Below are positions 5,421-14,431 of a stretch of 14,431 bases of DNA, one piece after another. Position 1 is the first letter of the stretch, and each line of letters starts with the position of its first letter. Position numbers and translations under genes: made by a program. The stretch lies in IMG/VR virus record IMGVR_UViG_2531839529_000011. The stretch is one strand, 5' to 3'. The notes under the pieces are model-generated. The model was not told where the DNA came from and did not search any database. It saw only the letters and a program-made list of their open reading frames with translations. Source of the DNA: a virus. Taxonomy: Duplodnaviria; Heunggongvirae; Uroviricota; Caudoviricetes.

Positions 5421-8027
5421 ATGCTGCGTATTGATGTACCTGAAAACGGCAGGCACGGCCCCTGCCCGAAATGTGGGGGCAAGGATCGTTTTCGCCTTGA
5501 TGACCTTGACGGGCGCGGGACGTGGATCTGCAGCCAGTGTGGCAATGGTGACGGTCTGGATCTGGTTAAGCTCGTAACCGGTTACAGCGTCAGAAAGGCT
5601 GCGCAGGAGGTGGCGCAGGTGCTTAATGTGCCGGATGTGCAGGAACTGCCTGTTAAGCCTGCCAGACAAAAAGCCCCTAAACGCGACATGGGTCTTACCG
5701 TGGCGGCGCTGATGAAAGAGAGCCACACGGGAGAAAGCGCCTATCTGACAGGAAAAGGGTTCGCCGGATACCCGGCCTCTCTGACCGGAAGCGTGCAGCA
5801 TATCAGCGGTAAGGATTTTCCTGCCGGTTCCCTGCTGTTACCACTCACGACCAACACCGGAGCCGTGACCGGTGCACAGCTTATCGCCCCGACGGGTGAA
5901 AAAAGCATACTGCCCGGCAGCACGATGAAAGGCGCGTTTGTGTCGCTCAGCCCGTTACCGTCTGAACCACCGGTACAGGTGGTGATTACCGAAGGTTACG
6001 CTACGGCGCTGACGGTAAGCCAGCTCACTGCCGGATGCGTAGTGGCTGCCATATCTGCGGGCAACCTGCCCAATGTGGCGCAGTCGCTGCGGGCACGCTG
6101 GCCTGAGGTAAAAATTATCATCGCCGGTGATAACGATTTTCAGGACGGGGGGGAGAATCCCGGCAGAGCCTTTGCTGAACGGGCGGCAAAAGCTGTTGGC
6201 GGCTGGATGACGCTGCCACCAGGAGAGATTAAGGCTGACTGGAATGACTTTCATCGGGAGCACGGTATTACCCGTGCCCGTGAAGCCTTTCGCAACGGTC
6301 TGGTACTGTGCGGGGAAGGCCGCACGCAACTGCCGCACGGGTTCCGTCTTACCCAGGAATATCTCTGGTATGAAAAGCAGGTACAGCGCAACGGTGAGAC
6401 GGAGATCCAGAACGTCAAAATATGCAGCCCGCTGCGCGTGACGGCAATCACCTGCGATGCCGATGGCGGTAACTTCGGACGACTGCTGGAATGGGAAGAT
6501 ACGTGGGGTGAGTGTCGCCGCTGGGCGATGCCGATGGAAATGCTGAGCGGCAGTGGTGAGGAACTGCGCCGGGTACTGCTGGTTAACGGGCTGTCTTATA
6601 TCAGCACCACCGGTGAGGCACGCGCACGCCTGATGGAATATATCTCACTGTGTAAACCGGAACGCCGCGTGACCTGCGTCAGTCGTACTGGCTGGCATGG
6701 TCAGGTTTACGTCCTGCAGGATGAGGTCAGCGGTGAAGGTGCAGAGGGTGTCATTCTCCAGACCACTTCCGTGCAGGGGCGTGATTTCCGCGTGTCGGGC
6801 ACAACAGAGGAATGGCGGGAGCATGTATCCCGCTACTGTACCGGCAACTCCCGCGTGGCATTTGCTGTCAGCCTGGCCTTTGCTGCACCACTGTTACGGC
6901 TGGTTGGTATGGACGGCGGCGGCTACCACCTAAAAGGGGAATCGACAGACGGTAAGACCACCACCATGAAAGCGGCAACCTCCGTCTGCGGCGGGCCTGA
7001 CTACTGGCAGACATGGCGGGCCACCGGCAACGCGCTGGAGGGATGCGCCAGCCGCCGCAACGATGCCGCCATGATGCTTGATGAGATCCGGGAAGTTGAC
7101 GGACGCGAGGCAGGCAATATCGCCTACATGCTGGCAAACGGTCAGGGCAAGGGCCGTGCCGGTACGGACGGTGAGCTGCGTACCCGTAAGCAGTGGCGCC
7201 TGTTGTTCTTTTCAACTGGCGAGTTGTCTCTGACCGAACATGCGGCAAAGGCCGGTGAGCGTACTTTTGCCGGGATGGAAGTCAGGATGATCCAGATCCC
7301 AAGCGATTCCGGGAAGTTTGGCGTTTTTGAGGAGCTGCACGGCTTCGACAGCGGCAAGGCTCTGGCAGAGCATCTTGAATGGGCCACGTCCTGCTACTAC
7401 GGTTCGCCGTTCCGGGAGTGGCTGAAAGCACTGACCGCTGATCTTAACGGACTAACGGCACAGGCAAAATCGCTGATGAAGGAATATGCTGCCGCCCTGA
7501 CTCCTAAAGATGCAGGCAATCAGGTGGGCCGGGCTGTGAACCGCTTTGCACTGGTGGCGATGGCAGGTGAACTGGCAACCCGTCTGGGTATCACCGGCTG
7601 GCCTGAGGGTGAAGCACTGCGGGCAACCCGCGTCTGCCTGAACGCATGGCTGAAAGATCGCGGGCACACCGCCAATCAGGAAGATATCGCCGCACTGGAG
7701 CAGGTTCGCAGTTTCTTTACCGCGAATCAGTACAGCCGCTTTGCAGACTGGTATGACGAGCGCAACCGCCCCGGCAATATGGTGGGCTGGCGCAGGGTGG
7801 AGAAAGGCAGTACCGCGCAGGGCACGGAAGCTGTCACTACGTTCTATGTCATGCCGTCCGGCTGGAAAGAAATCTGCAGGGGATTTGACCCGCGTAAGGT
7901 GGCGCGTCTGTGCGCAGATCGTGGATACCTGCTGCCCTCCACTGATGGCAAACTCCAGACAACCATTCGCCCGCCAGAGATGAATCCCCGCAGGCTCTAT
8001 GTCTTCAACAGCGAGGTGCCGGGTTAA
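5421..8027 (+). CDS. P4 alpha-type primase-helicase (zinc-binding primase N-terminus, TOPRIM, D5-like helicase with Walker A, C-terminal iteron-binding region); original N-terminus interrupted by in-frame TAG
   Basis: 868-aa ORF. CPKCGGKDRF...WICSQCGNGDG zinc ribbon; TOPRIM residues VITEGYATAL and IIAGDNDFQDGG; Walker A GESTDGKTT. An ATG at 5355 with strong SD GAGGGGG, coupled to the upstream stop, opens the same frame (MTIQTVTQISAAARGK) but hits TAG at 5403-5405; translation presumably restarts at ATG 5421. Confidence 0.9.
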   Translation: MLRIDVPENGRHGPCPKCGGKDRFRLDDLDGRGTWICSQCGNGDGLDLVKLVTGYSVRKAAQEVAQVLNVPDVQELPVKPARQKAPKRDMGLTVAALMKESHTGESAYLTGKGFAGYPASLTGSVQHISGKDFPAGSLLLPLTTNTGAVTGAQLIAPTGEKSILPGSTMKGAFVSLSPLPSEPPVQVVITEGYATALTVSQLTAGCVVAAISAGNLPNVAQSLRARWPEVKIIIAGDNDFQDGGENPGRAFAERAAKAVGGWMTLPPGEIKADWNDFHREHGITRAREAFRNGLVLCGEGRTQLPHGFRLTQEYLWYEKQVQRNGETEIQNVKICSPLRVTAITCDADGGNFGRLLEWEDTWGECRRWAMPMEMLSGSGEELRRVLLVNGLSYISTTGEARARLMEYISLCKPERRVTCVSRTGWHGQVYVLQDEVSGEGAEGVILQTTSVQGRDFRVSGTTEEWREHVSRYCTGNSRVAFAVSLAFAAPLLRLVGMDGGGYHLKGESTDGKTTTMKAATSVCGGPDYWQTWRATGNALEGCASRRNDAAMMLDEIREVDGREAGNIAYMLANGQGKGRAGTDGELRTRKQWRLLFFSTGELSLTEHAAKAGERTFAGMEVRMIQIPSDSGKFGVFEELHGFDSGKALAEHLEWATSCYYGSPFREWLKALTADLNGLTAQAKSLMKEYAAALTPKDAGNQVGRAVNRFALVAMAGELATRLGITGWPEGEALRATRVCLNAWLKDRGHTANQEDIAALEQVRSFFTANQYSRFADWYDERNRPGNMVGWRRVEKGSTAQGTEAVTTFYVMPSGWKEICRGFDPRKVARLCADRGYLLPSTDGKLQTTIRPPEMNPRRLYVFNSEVPG

Positions 8028-8061
8028 GGCTTTGCGTGAGTCTTATTTATTAAGGGTAACA

Positions 8062-8249
8062 GGTGAAACAGGTGGAACAACCGTATTTTACAGGGCTGAA
8101 CCTGTTCCACCTTCTGAAATAGTGAGGTGGAACAGATGTAACGCCAGCCAATCCGCTGTTCCACCTTGTTACCCGCGATGTTCCACCGGTGCAGTGTATA
8201 TAAATGCTTTATAAAACAAAGCAGTAACACATGTTTCACCTGTTCCACC
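8062..8249. repeat. Iteron array (putative ori/crr-like replication origin): 8 copies of TGTT(C/T)CACC / GGTG(G/A)AACA
   Basis: Copies at 8062-8070, 8071-8079, 8103-8111, 8126-8134, 8157-8165, 8179-8187, 8232-8240 and 8241-8249, in mixed orientation, flanking an AT-rich tract (tgtatataaatgctttataaaacaaa, 8205-8220). Resembles the P4 type I iteron TGTTCACC bound by alpha. Confidence 0.6.
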
Positions 8250-8337
8250 GCATCAGGGACATAAAGCAGACTGAAACAGAGGGTATTTTTATCTGGCTGG
8301 CTTTCATAGCCACGTCTGAATAACCGCAAGCGTCCGT

Positions 8338-8393
8338 TGTGCCAGCCACCACACACTGAGCACCGATAGTGTGCTTGTGTCAGCCACGACACA
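8338..8393 (+). promoter_or_regulatory. Ogr/Delta-dependent late promoter (Psid-like) with two TGT-N12-ACA dyads
   Basis: TGT-N12-ACA at 8338-8355 and 8376-8393, centres 38 bp apart. If the start site is near 8401, they sit at about -55 and -17, as recalled for P4 late promoters. Directly upstream of the sid-like gene (ATG 8428, SD aggag). Confidence 0.5.
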
Positions 8394-8427
8394 ATTGACG
8401 TAACGAACCAACCCGACAGGAGAAGTC

Positions 8428-9171
8428 ATGAACAACACCGCAGTGAATAACAACCTTTCCACTTTTCCGGCTGTAACGCAGCGGGCACTGGAAACCATGA
8501 ACACAGCCAGAAACGCATGGCTTGAAGCACGTCGTCAGCAGAAAGCGGCAGCGGATAATATTGCGACAATCCGCCAGCGTCGCGCTGAAATGGAAGCCAC
8601 GACGAACACACTGAATGAGGAGTGGCGCACGCTGTTTCGTGAAAGTCAGGGCGTGGTCTCAAAGGAAATGAAAAAACTGCGCACGGAAATTGCGCTGGGA
8701 CGAGAAACGCTTGAGGATTTTGATGAGCTGCTGGCGGCTCAGGAAAGCGAAAATGCACTTTTGCCGCAGAAAGCTGCGGAATTAGCCGGAAAGTATATCC
8801 ACGCGCATAACATTCTTGTGGATATTCGCGCAAAACAAATCTGGGAAGATTTTATGCAGTCGCATGGAAAAGCGCTTATTCAGACGCTGAGCCTGCTTAA
8901 ATCCACAATGGGCCGGGAAGCCAGTGCCGTTGTGGGTGTGGTGAATTCAGTTAATGACCCGGACACAGTGCTGAAAGACTTTATTCATAAACATATCACC
9001 AGACCGGCTCTGGCTAACGATGCGATGCCTGAACAGGACCCGGTGTTTAAACTGGCGGGAGTTGCCCCGGATTATGCGGCGCGTCTGGATTTCAGTAATC
9101 AACTCTCTCCGGCAGCTATGCATAAAATAAAGGTTCGTCAGGAACTTGCTGAGAAGGAGAAAGCTGTATGA
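8428..9171 (+). CDS. sid: Sid/Psu-family late protein, most likely external scaffold / capsid-size determination protein Sid
   Basis: 247 aa (P4 Sid is about 244 aa), coiled-coil-rich, first gene behind the Delta-type late promoter. Shares the YI.(A/S)H ... DFMQ.HG.AL motif with Psu-family proteins. Stop overlaps the next start (ATGA 9168-9171). Confidence 0.55.
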   Translation: MNNTAVNNNLSTFPAVTQRALETMNTARNAWLEARRQQKAAADNIATIRQRRAEMEATTNTLNEEWRTLFRESQGVVSKEMKKLRTEIALGRETLEDFDELLAAQESENALLPQKAAELAGKYIHAHNILVDIRAKQIWEDFMQSHGKALIQTLSLLKSTMGREASAVVGVVNSVNDPDTVLKDFIHKHITRPALANDAMPEQDPVFKLAGVAPDYAARLDFSNQLSPAAMHKIKVRQELAEKEKAV

Positions 9172-9293
9172 CGGCCCGAGGCACACCTGACCAGGCACTT
9201 ACCAGTTTTCGGAATGCCCGTATTCTGTGGGCCGGACATAGTGAGACCCGAAAAGCCGTTGAACAACAGATAGCATCTCTCCTCGCTGCGTAA
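9168..9293 (+). pseudogene. psu: psu-like (polarity suppression protein) N-terminal fragment, truncated by the IS66-family insertion
   Basis: ATG 9168 with strong SD aaggag, translationally coupled to sid. Reading frame runs to the IS boundary at 9290 and stops at TAA 9291-9293 inside the IS terminal repeat. Confidence 0.55.
9282..9289. repeat. Left copy of the 8-bp target-site duplication CTCGCTGC flanking the IS66-family element
   Basis: Identical octamer immediately outside both IS ends. Confidence 0.8.
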
Positions 9294-9342
9294 CCGGCTC
9301 ATTTAAACCGTCTGGTCTGTTTCCTCCGGCTCTACAAAAATA

Positions 9343-10020
9343 ATGTCCATCATTTTTAATGGACACTATCGTATGAAACACCGGACCTGGATCACTGAAG
9401 CTTTACGTCTTCACTTTGAAGAACATTTACCCCGGGTTGTGGCCGGGCGTCGCCTGGGTGTACCAAAATCAACAGTTTGTAGTATGTTCGTGCGCTTTCG
9501 GAGAGCTGGCCTTTCGTGGCCTTTGCCCGCAGGCATGTCGGAGCAGGAACTTGATGCCTGCCTTTACGGACAATTTTCCACGGTACCAGTCGTACGTCCT
9601 GAAAGCACCGTTATATCCGAAGCCCCCGTGGTAAAAAAACGTCCCCGGCGGCCCAACTTCCCTTATGAGTTTAAAATCGCCTTAGTGGAGCAGTCACTGC
9701 AGCCCGGAGCCTGTGTGGCGCAGATCGCCCGGGAAAACGGAATCAACGATAACCTGCTCTTCAACTGGCGCCATCAATACCGGAAAGGTGGCCTGCTGCC
9801 TTCCGGAAAAAATATGCCGGCACTGCTTCCCGTGACGTTAACGCCGGAGCCGGATAATAAAATCCCGGCCCCCGCACAGGAACCAGAGCAGATAAATACA
9901 CCGTCCGACAGTCTGTGTTGTGAGCTGGTTCTGCCGGCCGGAACTCTCAGGCTTAAAGGTAAACTGACGCCGGCGTTATTACAGACACTTATCCGCGAAA
10001 TAAAAGGGAGCAGCCACTGA
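9343..10020 (+). CDS. tnpA: IS66-family accessory protein TnpA (orfA; HTH)
   Basis: 225-aa ORF; RRPNFPYEFKIALVEQSLQPGACVAQIARENGINDNLLFNWRHQYRKG is a transposase-type HTH. Start uncertain (ATG 9343 or 9373; neither has a strong SD). Stop TGA overlaps the tnpB start. Confidence 0.7.
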   Translation: MSIIFNGHYRMKHRTWITEALRLHFEEHLPRVVAGRRLGVPKSTVCSMFVRFRRAGLSWPLPAGMSEQELDACLYGQFSTVPVVRPESTVISEAPVVKKRPRRPNFPYEFKIALVEQSLQPGACVAQIARENGINDNLLFNWRHQYRKGGLLPSGKNMPALLPVTLTPEPDNKIPAPAQEPEQINTPSDSLCCELVLPAGTLRLKGKLTPALLQTLIREIKGSSH

Positions 10021-10367
10021 TGATATCTCTCCCTGCAGGTTCGCGTATCTGGCTGGTTGCAGGTATCACCGATATGCGAAATGGCTTTAACGGCCTGGCA
10101 TCAAAAGTTCAGAACGTCCTGAAGGATGACCCGTTCTCCGGACACCTGTTCATCTTCCGCGGACGCCGGGGTGACCAGATAAAAGTGTTGTGGGCTGACA
10201 GTGACGGACTGTGCCTCTTCACCAAACGCCTGGAGCGGGGCCGCTTCGTCTGGCCAGTCACCCGTGACGGCAAGGTGCACCTTACTCCGGCTCAGTTATC
10301 CATGCTTCTTGAAGGTATCAACTGGAAGCACCCGAAACGAACGGAACGCGCTGGAATCCGCATATAA
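10020..10367 (+). CDS. tnpB: IS66-family TnpB (orfB)
   Basis: 115 aa MISLPAGSRIWLVAGITDMRNGFNGLA... recognised as the conserved IS66 orfB product; start overlaps the orfA stop (TGATG). Confidence 0.85.
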   Translation: MISLPAGSRIWLVAGITDMRNGFNGLASKVQNVLKDDPFSGHLFIFRGRRGDQIKVLWADSDGLCLFTKRLERGRFVWPVTRDGKVHLTPAQLSMLLEGINWKHPKRTERAGIRI

Positions 10368-10386
10368 CCCGTTGTAAAGTGAGGAT

Positions 10387-11958
10387 ATGGACACCTCACT
10401 TGCTCATGAGAACGCCCGCCTGCGGGCACTGTTGCAGACGCAACAGGACACCATCCGCCAGATGGCTGAATACAACCGCCTGCTCTCACAGCGGGTGGCG
10501 GCTTATGCTTCCGAAATCAACCGGCTGAAGGCGCTGGTTGCGAAACTGCAACGTATGCAGTTCGGTAAAAGCTCAGAAAAACTTCGTGCAAAAACCGAAC
10601 GGCAGATACAGGAAGCACAGGAGCGAATCAGCGCACTTCAGGAAGAAATGGCGGAAACGCTGGGTGAGCAATATGACCCGGTACTGCCATCCGCCCTGCG
10701 CCAGTCTTCAGCCCGTAAACCGTTACCGGCCTCACTTCCCCGTGAAACCCGGGTTATCCGGCCGGAAGAGGAATGCTGTCCTGCCTGTGGTGGTGAACTC
10801 AGTTCTCTGGGATGTGATGTGTCAGAGCAACTGGAGCTTATCAGCAGCGCCTTTAAGGTTATCGAAACACAACGTCCGAAACAGGCCTGTTGCCGGTGCG
10901 ACCATATCGTGCAGGCACCAGTACCTTCAAAACCCATTGCACGCAGTTATGCCGGAGCGGGGCTTCTGGCCCATGTTGTCACCGGGAAATATGCAGACCA
11001 TCTGCCGTTATACCGCCAGTCAGAAATATACCGTCGTCAGGGAGTGGAGCTGAGCCGTGCCACACTGGGGCGCTGGACAGGTGCTGTTGCTGAACTGCTG
11101 GAGCCGCTGTATGACGTCCTGCGCCAGTATGTGCTGATGCCCGGTAAAGTCCATGCTGATGATATCCCCGTCCTGGTCCAGGAGCCGGGCAGCGGTAAAA
11201 CCCGGACAGCCCGGCTGTGGGTCTACGTCCGTGATGACCGTAACGCCGGTTCACAGATGCCCCCGGCGGTCTGGTTCGCGTACAGTCCGGACCGGAAAGG
11301 TATCCATCCACAAAATCACCTGGCCGGTTACAGCGGTGTGCTTCAGGCCGATGCTTACGGTGGTTACCGGGCGTTATACGAATCCGGCAGAATAACGGAA
11401 GCCGCGTGTATGGCTCATGCCCGGAGAAAAATCCACGATGTGCATGCAAGAGCGCCCACCTACATCACCACGGAAGCCCTGCAGCGTATCGGTGAACTGT
11501 ATGCCATCGAGGCAGAGGTCCGGGGCTGTTCAGCAGAACAGCGTCTGGCGGCAAGAAAAGCCAGAGCCGCGCCACTGATGCAGTCACTGTATGACTGGAT
11601 ACAGCAACAGATGAAAACACTGTCGCGTCACTCAGATACGGCAAAAGCGTTCGCATACCTGCTGAAACAGTGGGATGCACTGAACGTGTACTGCAGTAAT
11701 GGCTGGGTGGAAATCGACAACAACATCGCAGAGAACGCCTTACGGGGAGTGGCCGTAGGCCGGAAAAACTGGATGTTCGCGGGTTCCGACAGCGGTGGTG
11801 AACATGCGGCGGTGTTGTACTCGCTGATCGGCACATGCCGTCTGAACAATGTGGAGCCAGAAAAGTGGCTGCGTTACGTCATTGAACATATCCAGGATTG
11901 GCCGGCAAACCGGGTACGCGATCTGTTGCCCTGGAAAGTTGATCTGAGCTCTCAGTAA
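10387..11958 (+). CDS. tnpC: IS66-family transposase TnpC (orfC)
   Basis: 523 aa with N-terminal leucine-zipper-like coiled coil, CPACGG...CCRC zinc-finger region and the IS66 DDE core. Recognised IS66 transposase family. Confidence 0.9.
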
Positions 11959-11988
11959 ATATCAATACGGTTCTGACGAGTCGCTTAC

Positions 11989-11996
11989 CTCGCTGC
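11989..11996. repeat. Right copy of the 8-bp target-site duplication CTCGCTGC
   Basis: Identical to 9282-9289, immediately after the right IS end (...CGCTTAC at 11988). Confidence 0.8.
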
Positions 11997-12426
11997 CACA
12001 GAAAAACCAACAGATTATGCCCGACAGCTCGAATTACTGCGGGAACGTCTGGATGTGCTGAAATGGCAAATTAACTGTGCTGCTCGCGAATGCATTTACT
12101 CGCAGCATTTATTGATGGAGGCCTGCACTGAAGCTGCTCTCAGCAATTTTATGCAGGCGAATGGGGCAGCCCTGACATCTGCACTGGCTCCGTTCCTGAA
12201 GGGGCGCGGAGGGGTTGACGTTGCGTCCCGTATATTACGCAGTGCTCTGGTTCGCCAGCTGGCAATAACACCGCCTGAAATTGCCGGGGATTATCGTGAG
12301 ATCCTGGATGAATCCGGTTTGATGCCAGACCCCGGGATGATTCGTGATTGCCAGGGCTCTTACACCCCGGCACAACATCTGCGTTTTCAGCAACGCCTGA
12401 ATGACATTAACGATATACAGGAGTGA
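11997..12426 (+). pseudogene. psu: psu-like C-terminal fragment (in frame with 9168-9289 once the IS and one TSD copy are removed)
   Basis: Frame is open from 11998 to TGA 12424-12426; the ORF track finds it from GTG 12055. The joined product is about 183 aa (P4 Psu is about 190 aa) and carries VLKWQINCAAR...FMQANGAALTSALAPFL, matching the Psu signature as I recall it. Confidence 0.55.
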
Positions 12427-12431
12427 TATTA

Positions 12432-12704
12432 ATGGCACTTAAATGTCCGGAATGCGGTACAGTTGCACACGCCAGAACAGCAGCCTATGAAGCTCCGTCA
12501 GTTAAACGCTCGTGGTATCAGTGCCAGAATCTGGAATGTTCCTGCACATTTACGGCACTGGAGAGTGTGGATAAGATAATCATGAAACCCCGGCGCAATG
12601 AACAGGAACCAGACAAATCACAACCCCCGGTAAAACAACAGCAAACGCTCAATCGCTATGGCTCCGCGTCAAAACTGTCAAGCCGTCAGCAGATTCCTGT
12701 CTGA
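12432..12704 (+). CDS. Ogr/Delta-family zinc-finger late transcription activator
   Basis: MALKCPECGTVAHARTAAYEAPSVKRSWYQCQNLECSCTFTALESV has the Ogr/Delta C-x2-C...C-x4-C signature. ATG 12432 with SD caggag; the ORF track extends to a GTG at 12423. Confidence 0.8.
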   Translation: MALKCPECGTVAHARTAAYEAPSVKRSWYQCQNLECSCTFTALESVDKIIMKPRRNEQEPDKSQPPVKQQQTLNRYGSASKLSSRQQIPV

Positions 12705-12724: not shown

Positions 12725-12750
12725 AATCCCGGTCAAGTACCGGGATTTTT
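12725..12750 (+). terminator. Rho-independent terminator of the late operon
   Basis: Perfect 9-bp stem AATCCCGGT / ACCGGGATT with 5-nt loop, followed by TTTTT, 20 bp after the delta stop. Confidence 0.6.
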
Positions 12751-12967
12751 AACACCTTTTCCCTGGCTGGCCTGAGAGCGCATGAGTGCATGTCTATGGC
12801 GCATGAAAACGCATGAGCCTTATGCACCATTTTTGACGAGAAAGCCCTTGTGTGGTGGCTTCTGAGACGATTTATGAGGTGCATGAAAACCAGTCTGTTA
12901 AGCGAAGCGGGCAGGCGTGCGGGGCTGCCCGCGCAGAAGGAGAAAGTGGTGTATTCAAAGTATTTTT

Positions 12968-14431
12968 CTACCCATGACATTTTTTGAATTTTTTTCCTGA
13001 GCCACAATAGCAAGGCTCATTTCTTCCCATTTTTTTTTCATTATTAACTATAGGGAATGTAGACATATATGATGTCGGCTTAGGCAAGATGTCTGTAAGA
13101 ACGCTATACTCCTTCATGGATTTTTTCGCTAATAAGCGCTCATCCTTTGTAAGTGGCTCATCAAACTTACAATAAACAACATCTTCAGAACGGCCCTCAG
13201 AATCTTTGCTTTCCGTTGCAATAATTATCAACTTCTTAATTTGACTGTATTTATACTTCGCCACTAGTGCATACATTTGCACGCAAGAAAAACGCTCCAA
13301 TCTATATTTTTCATATGATAACCCTTCATCACGCGGAAAGAACAAAAAAATATAATATTTGCCTTTTTCGTCAATCGACTCAACAATCCTAGAACTTCTT
13401 CTATTAGTAGGAACCTGTTTGAACTTTTCTATAAATGCCTTAGAAAGATGATATCTTGACACTCTGCTTTCTGCTGCCAGTTGTCTAACTGTTTCCTCAT
13501 GACTATGAAAGTCATTTTCTATACCCAAACCTACAGTTGCAGTAAGAATTGATTCCGAAAGTCTCTGTATCATTTCATCCCAAAACACACTTCCTTTTTT
13601 CATTGCCTTGTAATAATCATACTGAGGAGATTTTTTTAACACTTCCCACTCATTTTCTGCTATTTGCACAAATGTATTTTCAGGTACCAATTTCTCATCT
13701 ACAATCACCCCATGCCCGCTCAAATATGCAGCCAAAGTATCATCTTCTCCTGGACTTAATCTCAGAAGGCCAGAACGGACAACACGTTCCTTCTCTTTCA
13801 AGTAACTAACAAAGTCAGTAATTGTATCTAACTCCGACAATAAGAGATTTAATGACAATTCATCTAACACATGAACAAATGTTTTATTTGGATAAATATC
13901 TCCAATGGAAAAAGGTTGCTCCATACTTTCCTTTATTCCAAATGAGAAAACATTCATGAGAGTACCAGAACTCCCTTCAGCTATACGTGAAAAAAAATTA
14001 GATGCAGGAACCGAACTATTATTGGTTACAGCGATAAGGAAAAACCTCATATCTCTATTTATTTTAACTGGAAAGGGAACTTTGCATTTTTTATCTAAGA
14101 ACAATCGTCCATGATGATCTTTTAAAAACTTCTCTGCCCCATGTAACTGAACAGCCGATTCAGTTATGGATCTTTTAAACCATCTTTTCCATGCTATAGA
14201 AACTTCAATCTCTTCGTTAAAGTTAATATCCTTATCTGAAAATAAAATCACATTATCTTCAAAAACAACTAATAAATCACACACCTCCTTCCCCGATTTG
14301 TTTTTAGAAAGCCCTTCATCACTATACACATTAGGATATGACCATAAACCAATAAACGCACTATTAGCCAGTTCTATTAATCTTTTTTCAGTTTGATTAA
14401 CTCCCTGCCCTTTGTTAATCACTTTTAACAT
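12968..14431 (-). CDS. 487-aa protein of unknown function with C-terminal SEC-C zinc-binding motif; low-GC cargo in the P4-type hotspot position (candidate defence protein)
   Basis: Complete ORF whose ATG is the last three bases of the window. C-terminus ...[17 protein letters not shown] is a canonical SEC-C motif (as at the SecA C-terminus and in YecA). About 30-33% GC against about 55-63% in the backbone. No family recognised for the body. Confidence 0.8.

Follow-up and report, generated by a model that had tools for sequence, protein, structure and literature searches.

A large fraction of Enterobacterales genomes contain P4-like satellites, which bring anti-phage defence with them as cargo. 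It is at the late promoter that such a satellite senses its helper phage. In P4 itself, the late promoter of the sid operon, Psid, is strongly activated by delta although delta occupies both of its sites there, and Julien and Calendar reportedly footprinted delta, in 1995, on a second site near -18 in the P4 late promoters. The P4 sequence (NC_001609) contains two TGT-N12-ACA dyads upstream of sid, at 9493-9510 and 9531-9548. The second late promoter of P4, PLL, lies on the leftward strand and has a TGT-N12-ACA dyad at P4 9133-9150 upstream of a CACAAA-type -10; its proximal site is degenerate by simple pattern.

Trans-activation of P4 by the P2 activator Ogr results in expression of delta, psu and sid (PMC7552001). 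The binding sites of Ogr are inverted repeats at about -55, and its contact with the alpha subunit of RNA polymerase is required (PMC3152322); this position agrees with the Ogr/Delta dyad near -55 to which an earlier note on the DNA studied here referred. The consensus of the Ogr site is TGT-N12-ACA and the zinc motif of the protein is CX2CX22CX4C (PMC3931495). Positions were calibrated on P2, for which the RefSeq record (NC_001895) annotates activator binding sites together with mapped starts. The dyad centres calculated from these starts lie at -55.5 (PO), -56.5 (PV) and -57.5 (PF), again in line with the position in the note, and the P2 dyads show one mismatch each to TGT-N12-ACA, two in PV by mismatch scan.

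The window analysed here, i.e., the whole stretch of 14,431 nucleotides, is part of an E. coli/Shigella chromosome that carries a P4-like satellite prophage at a tRNA-Arg gene. The region at 8338-8402 is very probably the Ogr/delta-activated late promoter Psid of this prophage, homologous to Psid of P4. The reading put forward in the earlier note is thus supported, as a known mechanism correctly recognized and not as a discovery. In the window, the distance between the two dyad centres is 38 bp, and the centres are 81.5 and 43.5 nt away from the sid ATG at 8428; all three distances are the same in P4, which bears out the claim that the dyads are correctly spaced before the sid start. In the window as in P4, CACAATT overlaps the proximal dyad and is followed by TAAC at the predicted start, replication iterons are found just upstream of the promoter, and psu and delta are further genes of the sid-led operon. 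When 8000-9200 was searched at the nucleotide level against 50,697 phage records in “distant” mode, no record matched, P4 included, and the Sid proteins of the window and P4 are only 24% identical (E=1e-12). Consequently, the homology to P4 is established via protein similarity and promoter geometry, by which the dyad pair of the window appears as the positional homologue of the P4 Psid pair. The two elements differ in their dyad interiors, in the operon order (sid-psu-delta in the window, sid-delta-psu in P4), in delta (a single-domain protein of 90 aa in the window, duplicated and 166 aa long in P4) and in alpha (co-directional and of the Toprim/DUF927 type in the window, divergent in P4). 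In addition, the late operon of the window, unlike that of P4, is interrupted by an insertion sequence (IS). A second, PLL-like promoter with two dyads was not found in the window when one mismatch per dyad and a spacing of 37-39 bp were allowed.

The comparison with P2 sets the satellite promoters apart. The activator sites of P2 PO, PP, PV and PF are imperfect (TGT-N12-CCA or CAA) and single, unlike the pair in the window, although the left half-site TGTGYCAG is common to P2 PO, the distal site of P4 and both sites of the window. The P2 late promoters share with the window the lack of a good -35, but they do not have its CACAAT -10. A proximal dyad is absent from the P2 late promoters, where the corresponding positions show 2-4 mismatches among the six specified bases, which makes the second site a feature of the satellites. 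The start-proximal site that the earlier note ascribes to P4 late promoters is present in the P4 sequence.

An analogy of mechanism only is offered by Class I CRP-dependent promoters, which resemble the window in having an upstream site of dimeric type, a weak promoter and contact with the alpha subunit of RNA polymerase. A CRP site reads TGTGA-N6-TCACA and spans 16 bp, i.e., TGT-N10-ACA and not N12. The Class I promoters further differ in that CRP/FNR is not a zinc finger and that they have no counterpart of a site in the spacer region. As a candidate identity for the two sites of the window, a CRP/FNR site was rejected, since both span 18 bp (TGT-N12-ACA) and their inner bases are not GA/TC.

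Dyad pair and probable core promoter upstream of sid

Both dyads were found at exactly the coordinates that had been claimed for them. The distal dyad (TGTGCCAGCCACCACACA) at 8338-8355 is a perfect match to the TGT-N12-ACA inverted repeat of the late promoters and is predicted to be the main Ogr/delta activator site. The proximal dyad (TGTGTCAGCCACGACACA) at 8376-8393 forms a perfect palindrome with 6-bp arms (TGTGTC-N6-GACACA), is located within the promoter spacer and overlaps the -10 element. Neither dyad is assigned to a strand. The two are identical at 16 of 18 positions and were also recovered by a repeat search, as direct repeats of 19 nt spaced 38 nt.

The bare TGT-N12-ACA motif is not enriched across the window, with seven matches observed against 3.75 expected and seven or more in 16 of 200 shuffles. 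Five further matches are scattered within int, alpha, the IS element and delta, with one at the end of the window, so that the statement of exactly two such dyads holds locally upstream of sid and not window-wide. A lone dyad would thus carry little meaning. The pair, however, is not a product of chance: two dyads at exactly 38 nt, anywhere in the window, appeared in 5 of 3000 dinucleotide-preserving shuffles, and the arrangement is kept in all of the 156 related loci described below, which removes the earlier worry that the dyads are short enough to occur by chance.

The elements of a core promoter surround the proximal dyad. A weak -35-like hexamer, TAGTGT, is located at 8367-8372 on the + strand, and only T8367 and G8369 in it are conserved. 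This T.G lies 9-7 nt upstream of the proximal dyad, is seen across 50 distinct sequences and would correspond to two key bases of a -35 hexamer. A spacer of exactly 17 bp separates the hexamer from CACAAT, which is part of the -10 element CACAAT(T) at 8390-8396 (+ strand). The right half-site of the proximal dyad supplies the first four bases of this element, and the hexamer at 8390-8395 keeps A-11 and T-7. From the positions of the -10 and the T.G, and from the dyad-to-start distances annotated in P2, we infer a transcription start at or near 8402, the A of GTAAC on the + strand. Relative to this start, the dyads would be centred at -55.5 and -17.5, close to the positions of about -55 and -17 proposed earlier, and the distal centre would fall within the annotated P2 range of -55.5 to -57.5. 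The predicted leader comprises 26 nt and contains an AGGAG Shine-Dalgarno motif at 8418-8422. The core promoter is weak and lacks a consensus -35. A generic sigma-70 scan called no promoter at 8338-8402, as expected for an activator-dependent promoter.

These elements suggest the following course of events. The bare core promoter (TAGTGT, 17-bp spacer, CACAAT) would be nearly silent on its own. Ogr of a P2-like helper, or the 90-aa delta of the satellite, would recognize the TGT/ACA half-sites of the distal dyad near -55.5, and the bound activator would recruit RNA polymerase via its alpha subunit. Transcription would then begin near 8402 and, after sid, psu and delta, would end at a hairpin (about 12725-12750). 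A second activator molecule would most likely occupy the dyad at -17.5 and adjust the response.

It is very improbable that the dyads instead bind another protein, such as a CRP-like factor, alpha (with the dyads as part of the origin) or a regulator of the Cox/Vis type. Such a role would fit their location about 90 nt downstream of an iteron cluster at 8058-8250, the fact that the “origin of DNA replication” feature of the P4 record (9086-9809) spans P4 Psid, and the superficially CRP-like appearance of TGTG...CACA. However, the iterons have a different sequence, GTT(C/T)CACC, a CRP site is 2 bp shorter, and the dyad agrees with the annotated P2 activator sites in its half-sites and in its predicted location near -55. 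In addition, an Ogr/delta protein is encoded immediately downstream in every locus compared.

Conservation of the two-site arrangement among related loci

The set of related loci was assembled from one-genome-per-species contigs (16 loci) and viral contigs (61 loci) by Sid alignment, and was extended by 79 viral loci found with P4 Sid as query. Almost all of the latter are 96-100% identical to P4 and add number but little divergence. The resulting count of 156 refers to loci that contain the sid 5' end, which collapse to 63 distinct promoter sequences and derive from Escherichia, Shigella, Enterobacter, Citrobacter, Pantoea, Mixta, Scandinavium and viral contigs.

The dyad pair is present upstream of sid in every one of these loci, with a spacing of 38 bp in 148 and 39 bp in eight. 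The loci with 39 bp (L012, L129-L131 and L133-L136) represent the sole spacing variant seen, which is confined to some Pantoea-like or metagenomic lineages. Beginning at dyad position 15 of the proximal dyad, the sequence CACAATT is identical throughout (156/156, P4 included). Across about 50 distinct sequences, the columns without variation are those of TGT and ACA in each dyad, of the C before each ACA and of CACAATT, and TGT and (C)ACA of the distal dyad are unchanged in 48 distinct sequences. As the C ahead of each ACA does not vary, the conserved unit is TGT-N11-CACA. The interiors and flanks of the dyads vary freely (interior examples are TGTCTGGTTCGTGGCACA and TGTATGCATGACAGCACA), and in 625 kb of related loci the frequency of the motif apart from the pair is one per 2,936 nt. 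The distance from the start of the proximal dyad to the sid ATG ranges from 48 to 54 nt across all loci and is mostly 52 nt, the value also found in the window and in P4.

The promoter pair accompanies sid both in loci with a co-directional alpha, like the window, and in those with a divergent alpha, like P4. It is likewise kept with the operon orders sid-psu-delta, sid-delta and sid-delta-psu-like. Several loci (L004-L009, L011, L012 and L017) have no psu between sid and delta, and others (L005, L007, L013 and L014) carry an additional sid/psu-like gene after delta, which is the P4-like order; the promoter is unchanged in both cases. The two-site architecture of Psid has thus been kept without exception though Sid diverged to 24% identity. 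Its universality in the family, together with that of the 38-bp spacing, is a modest addition to a known promoter type, as are the conserved unit TGT-N11-CACA and a further conserved, T-rich CTGGCTnGCC motif upstream. The signature of TGT-N11-CACA, a 20-nt gap and TGT-N11-CACAATT is usable to annotate satellite late operons.

The pattern of variation also bears on the nature of the sites. The outer 3 bp of the dyads are invariant, while the inner arm positions are complementary in 27% of the distinct distal sites, which corresponds to the level expected by chance, and no compensatory substitutions in the dyad arms were found among the compared sequences. Fixed TGT and CACA combined with chance-level inner complementarity point to base-specific protein contacts and not to a hairpin. 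Next to no probability is therefore left for the view that the dyads are chance matches, or RNA or DNA hairpins in read-through transcripts of alpha, with no role as protein sites. Only six bases are specified, the window contains the five other matches mentioned above and the proximal dyad could form a 6-bp stem, but neither the fixed spacing of both dyads in all loci nor the rarity of the 38-nt pair in shuffled sequence would be expected on this view. Its RNA-structure version was rejected because compensatory variation is absent and the inner distal arms pair at chance level.

For the proximal site of the putative Ogr/delta-activated promoter, two further readings have to be weighed. The conservation of its CACA could stem in part from the overlapping -10 and not from activator binding. 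This overlap does not, however, explain the invariant TGT at -26 to -24. It is unlikely, though the main alternative, that the distal dyad alone activates while the proximal dyad acts mainly as an operator. At high levels, activator bound there would compete with RNA polymerase and so cap or delay expression of the sid operon, or the site would make the promoter favour delta over helper Ogr. Repressors typically bind where the proximal dyad is situated, between the -35 and the -10 and overlapping the latter, and the dyad is universal in the satellites and absent from the P2 late promoters. On the other hand, the rigid 38-bp spacing (148 of 156 loci) suggests that the two dyads act together, and the strong activation of P4 Psid by delta with both sites occupied, as mentioned above, speaks against an operator. 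All relatives compared encode a delta of about 90 aa with a single domain, and the two-site promoter is consequently not tied to the duplicated delta of P4. A proximal dyad that is universal, rigidly spaced and kept with a single-domain delta may be something other than a plain second site of activation. More speculatively, it could be a satellite-specific device, for example a sink for helper Ogr or a sensor of dose, that times capsid hijacking relative to helper late expression, with a CTGGCTnGCC motif as a third control site; this idea is considered decidedly doubtful.

The satellite prophage and its interrupted late operon

The window begins with a gene for a yfdC-type formate/nitrite transporter (1-933), downstream of which the integration site, tRNA-Arg(CCT), is located at 1009-1081. 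The integrase gene (int) follows at 1209-2543, and small early genes lie between it and the gene for an alpha-like primase of the Toprim/DUF927 type (5421-8027). The late operon starts with the sid-like gene at 8428-9171 on the + strand, which encodes 247 aa, for which 126 homologues were found; besides its similarity to P4 Sid, the protein shows a weak match to the Pfam Psu family. The co-location of int, alpha, sid, a disrupted psu and delta at a tRNA gene corresponds to the layout of a P4-like satellite, which is intact in a relative (L002) whose sid, psu and delta are adjacent or overlapping. Neither epsilon nor the cI immunity RNA was identified in the window, where an Rfam scan matched only the tRNA-Arg. 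Matches to the region 8000-9200 were found in 644 complete E. coli records, and the identity is at least 99% in 196 of these.

Two arrangements of alpha were observed when 5421-8027 of the window was compared with L012, L013, L015-L018 and P4. In the first, to which the window belongs, a Toprim/DUF927 alpha is co-directional and ends about 400 nt upstream of sid; in the second, alpha is of the P4 type and lies about 2 kb upstream on the other strand. Between these types, identity is only about 37-41%, in the N-terminal 200-300 residues. The close relative L002, with its intact operon, carries the same late module; its integrase differs and it sits at a tRNA-Leu gene.

In the window, psu is split. 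Its 5' fragment of about 40 codons (9168-9289, + strand) was delimited by tblastn and by alignment to the intact gene of L002, and its start overlaps the sid stop. The 3' fragment (11989-12426, + strand) matches Pfam Psu (E=2.5e-33) and is 97% identical to residues 36-183 of intact Psu. Between them, an IS66-family element of 2,699 bp (9290-11988, + strand) has inserted in the same orientation as the operon. It contains tnpA, tnpB and a DDE transposase gene, as seen from Pfam and alignments, and is flanked by an 8-bp target duplication, CTCGCTGC, at 9282-9289 and 11989-11996. The boundaries of the element were derived from alignments and direct reading, and it is referred to as ISCro1-like by analogy with the annotation of E. 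coli strain 504838 (L020). Psu is accordingly lost in this copy. The psu::IS junction of the window was absent from the complete E. coli genomes searched. In strain 504838 (L020 11226-14205), which carries an otherwise identical element at the same tRNA-Arg site, an ISCro1 copy is instead located in delta. The different positions of the IS suggest that the late operon was struck independently in different lineages, and the insertions in psu and in delta look like independent inactivations of the same operon.

The delta gene of the window, at 12432-12704 on the + strand, is intact and encodes a single-domain zinc-finger activator of 90 aa. As claimed earlier for this interval, its product is Delta-like: it matches Pfam Ogr_Delta (PF04606, E=7.5e-16), retains the zinc motif CX2C-X22-CX4C and shares 47% identity with P2 Ogr over the finger domain and 45% with the N-terminal half of P4 delta. 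Downstream of delta, a hairpin with a 9-bp stem followed by a T run (12725-12750, + strand; -13.2 kcal/mol, z=-2.96) is the probable terminator of the sid operon; a scan for consensus terminators did not call it.

The consequences of the insertion would differ between sid and delta. As the IS lies between the promoter and delta, the positive feedback by delta is probably impaired, being either weakened or abolished, whereas sid, which precedes the insertion, could still be induced by helper Ogr. In this copy, helper Ogr could thus switch on sid, and delta feedback would probably be blocked by polarity or reduced. The earlier proposal that the late module is wired for helper cross-activation despite the disruption of psu consequently stands for sid and probably falls for the delta feedback. 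These considerations support the prediction that IS-damaged copies such as the window still respond to helper Ogr. No helper prophage or helper Ogr is visible within the window.

Sequence features flanking the promoter and the late operon

Within the iteron cluster at 8058-8250, GTT(C/T)CACC occurs eight times, in either orientation, and several of the copies form inverted pairs. These copies resemble the “ori type 1” iterons of P4 (TGTTCACC), which are likewise situated just upstream of P4 Psid. Located between the end of alpha and Psid, the iterons of the window probably mark the satellite replication origin or a crr-like region.

In most loci of the Sid family, a T-rich motif followed by CTGGCTnGCC(A/G)G, often a 12-bp palindrome (CTGGCTAGCCAG), is found about 20-28 nt upstream of the distal dyad. 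Copies of the CTGGCTnGCC motif upstream of Psid were seen in different clades, in that of the window in split form. In the window, the motif occurs at 8287-8312 and again at 12755-12772, just after the delta terminator. In P4 (L001), copies are located at 9463-9473 (+ strand) and 8724-8734 (- strand), and the P4 occurrences include one near the early-promoter region.

An intact copy of the P2/P4 cos was not found in the window. A diverged cos-like stretch, GAAGCGGGCAGGCGTGCGGGGCTGCC, is present at about 12890-12935, compared to GAAGCGGGCG|GGCGAGGCGGGGAAAGCAC in P2 and P4. This divergence suggests either a helper with a non-P2 cos or a decayed packaging site.

Just beyond delta and the cos-like stretch, the - strand encodes a protein of at least 487 aa with a SEC-C motif, which belongs to the YecA family (12968-14431). 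In the relative L002, a retron St85 system is found at the corresponding position, and the SEC-C/YecA gene may be cargo of a variable hotspot of P4-like satellites.
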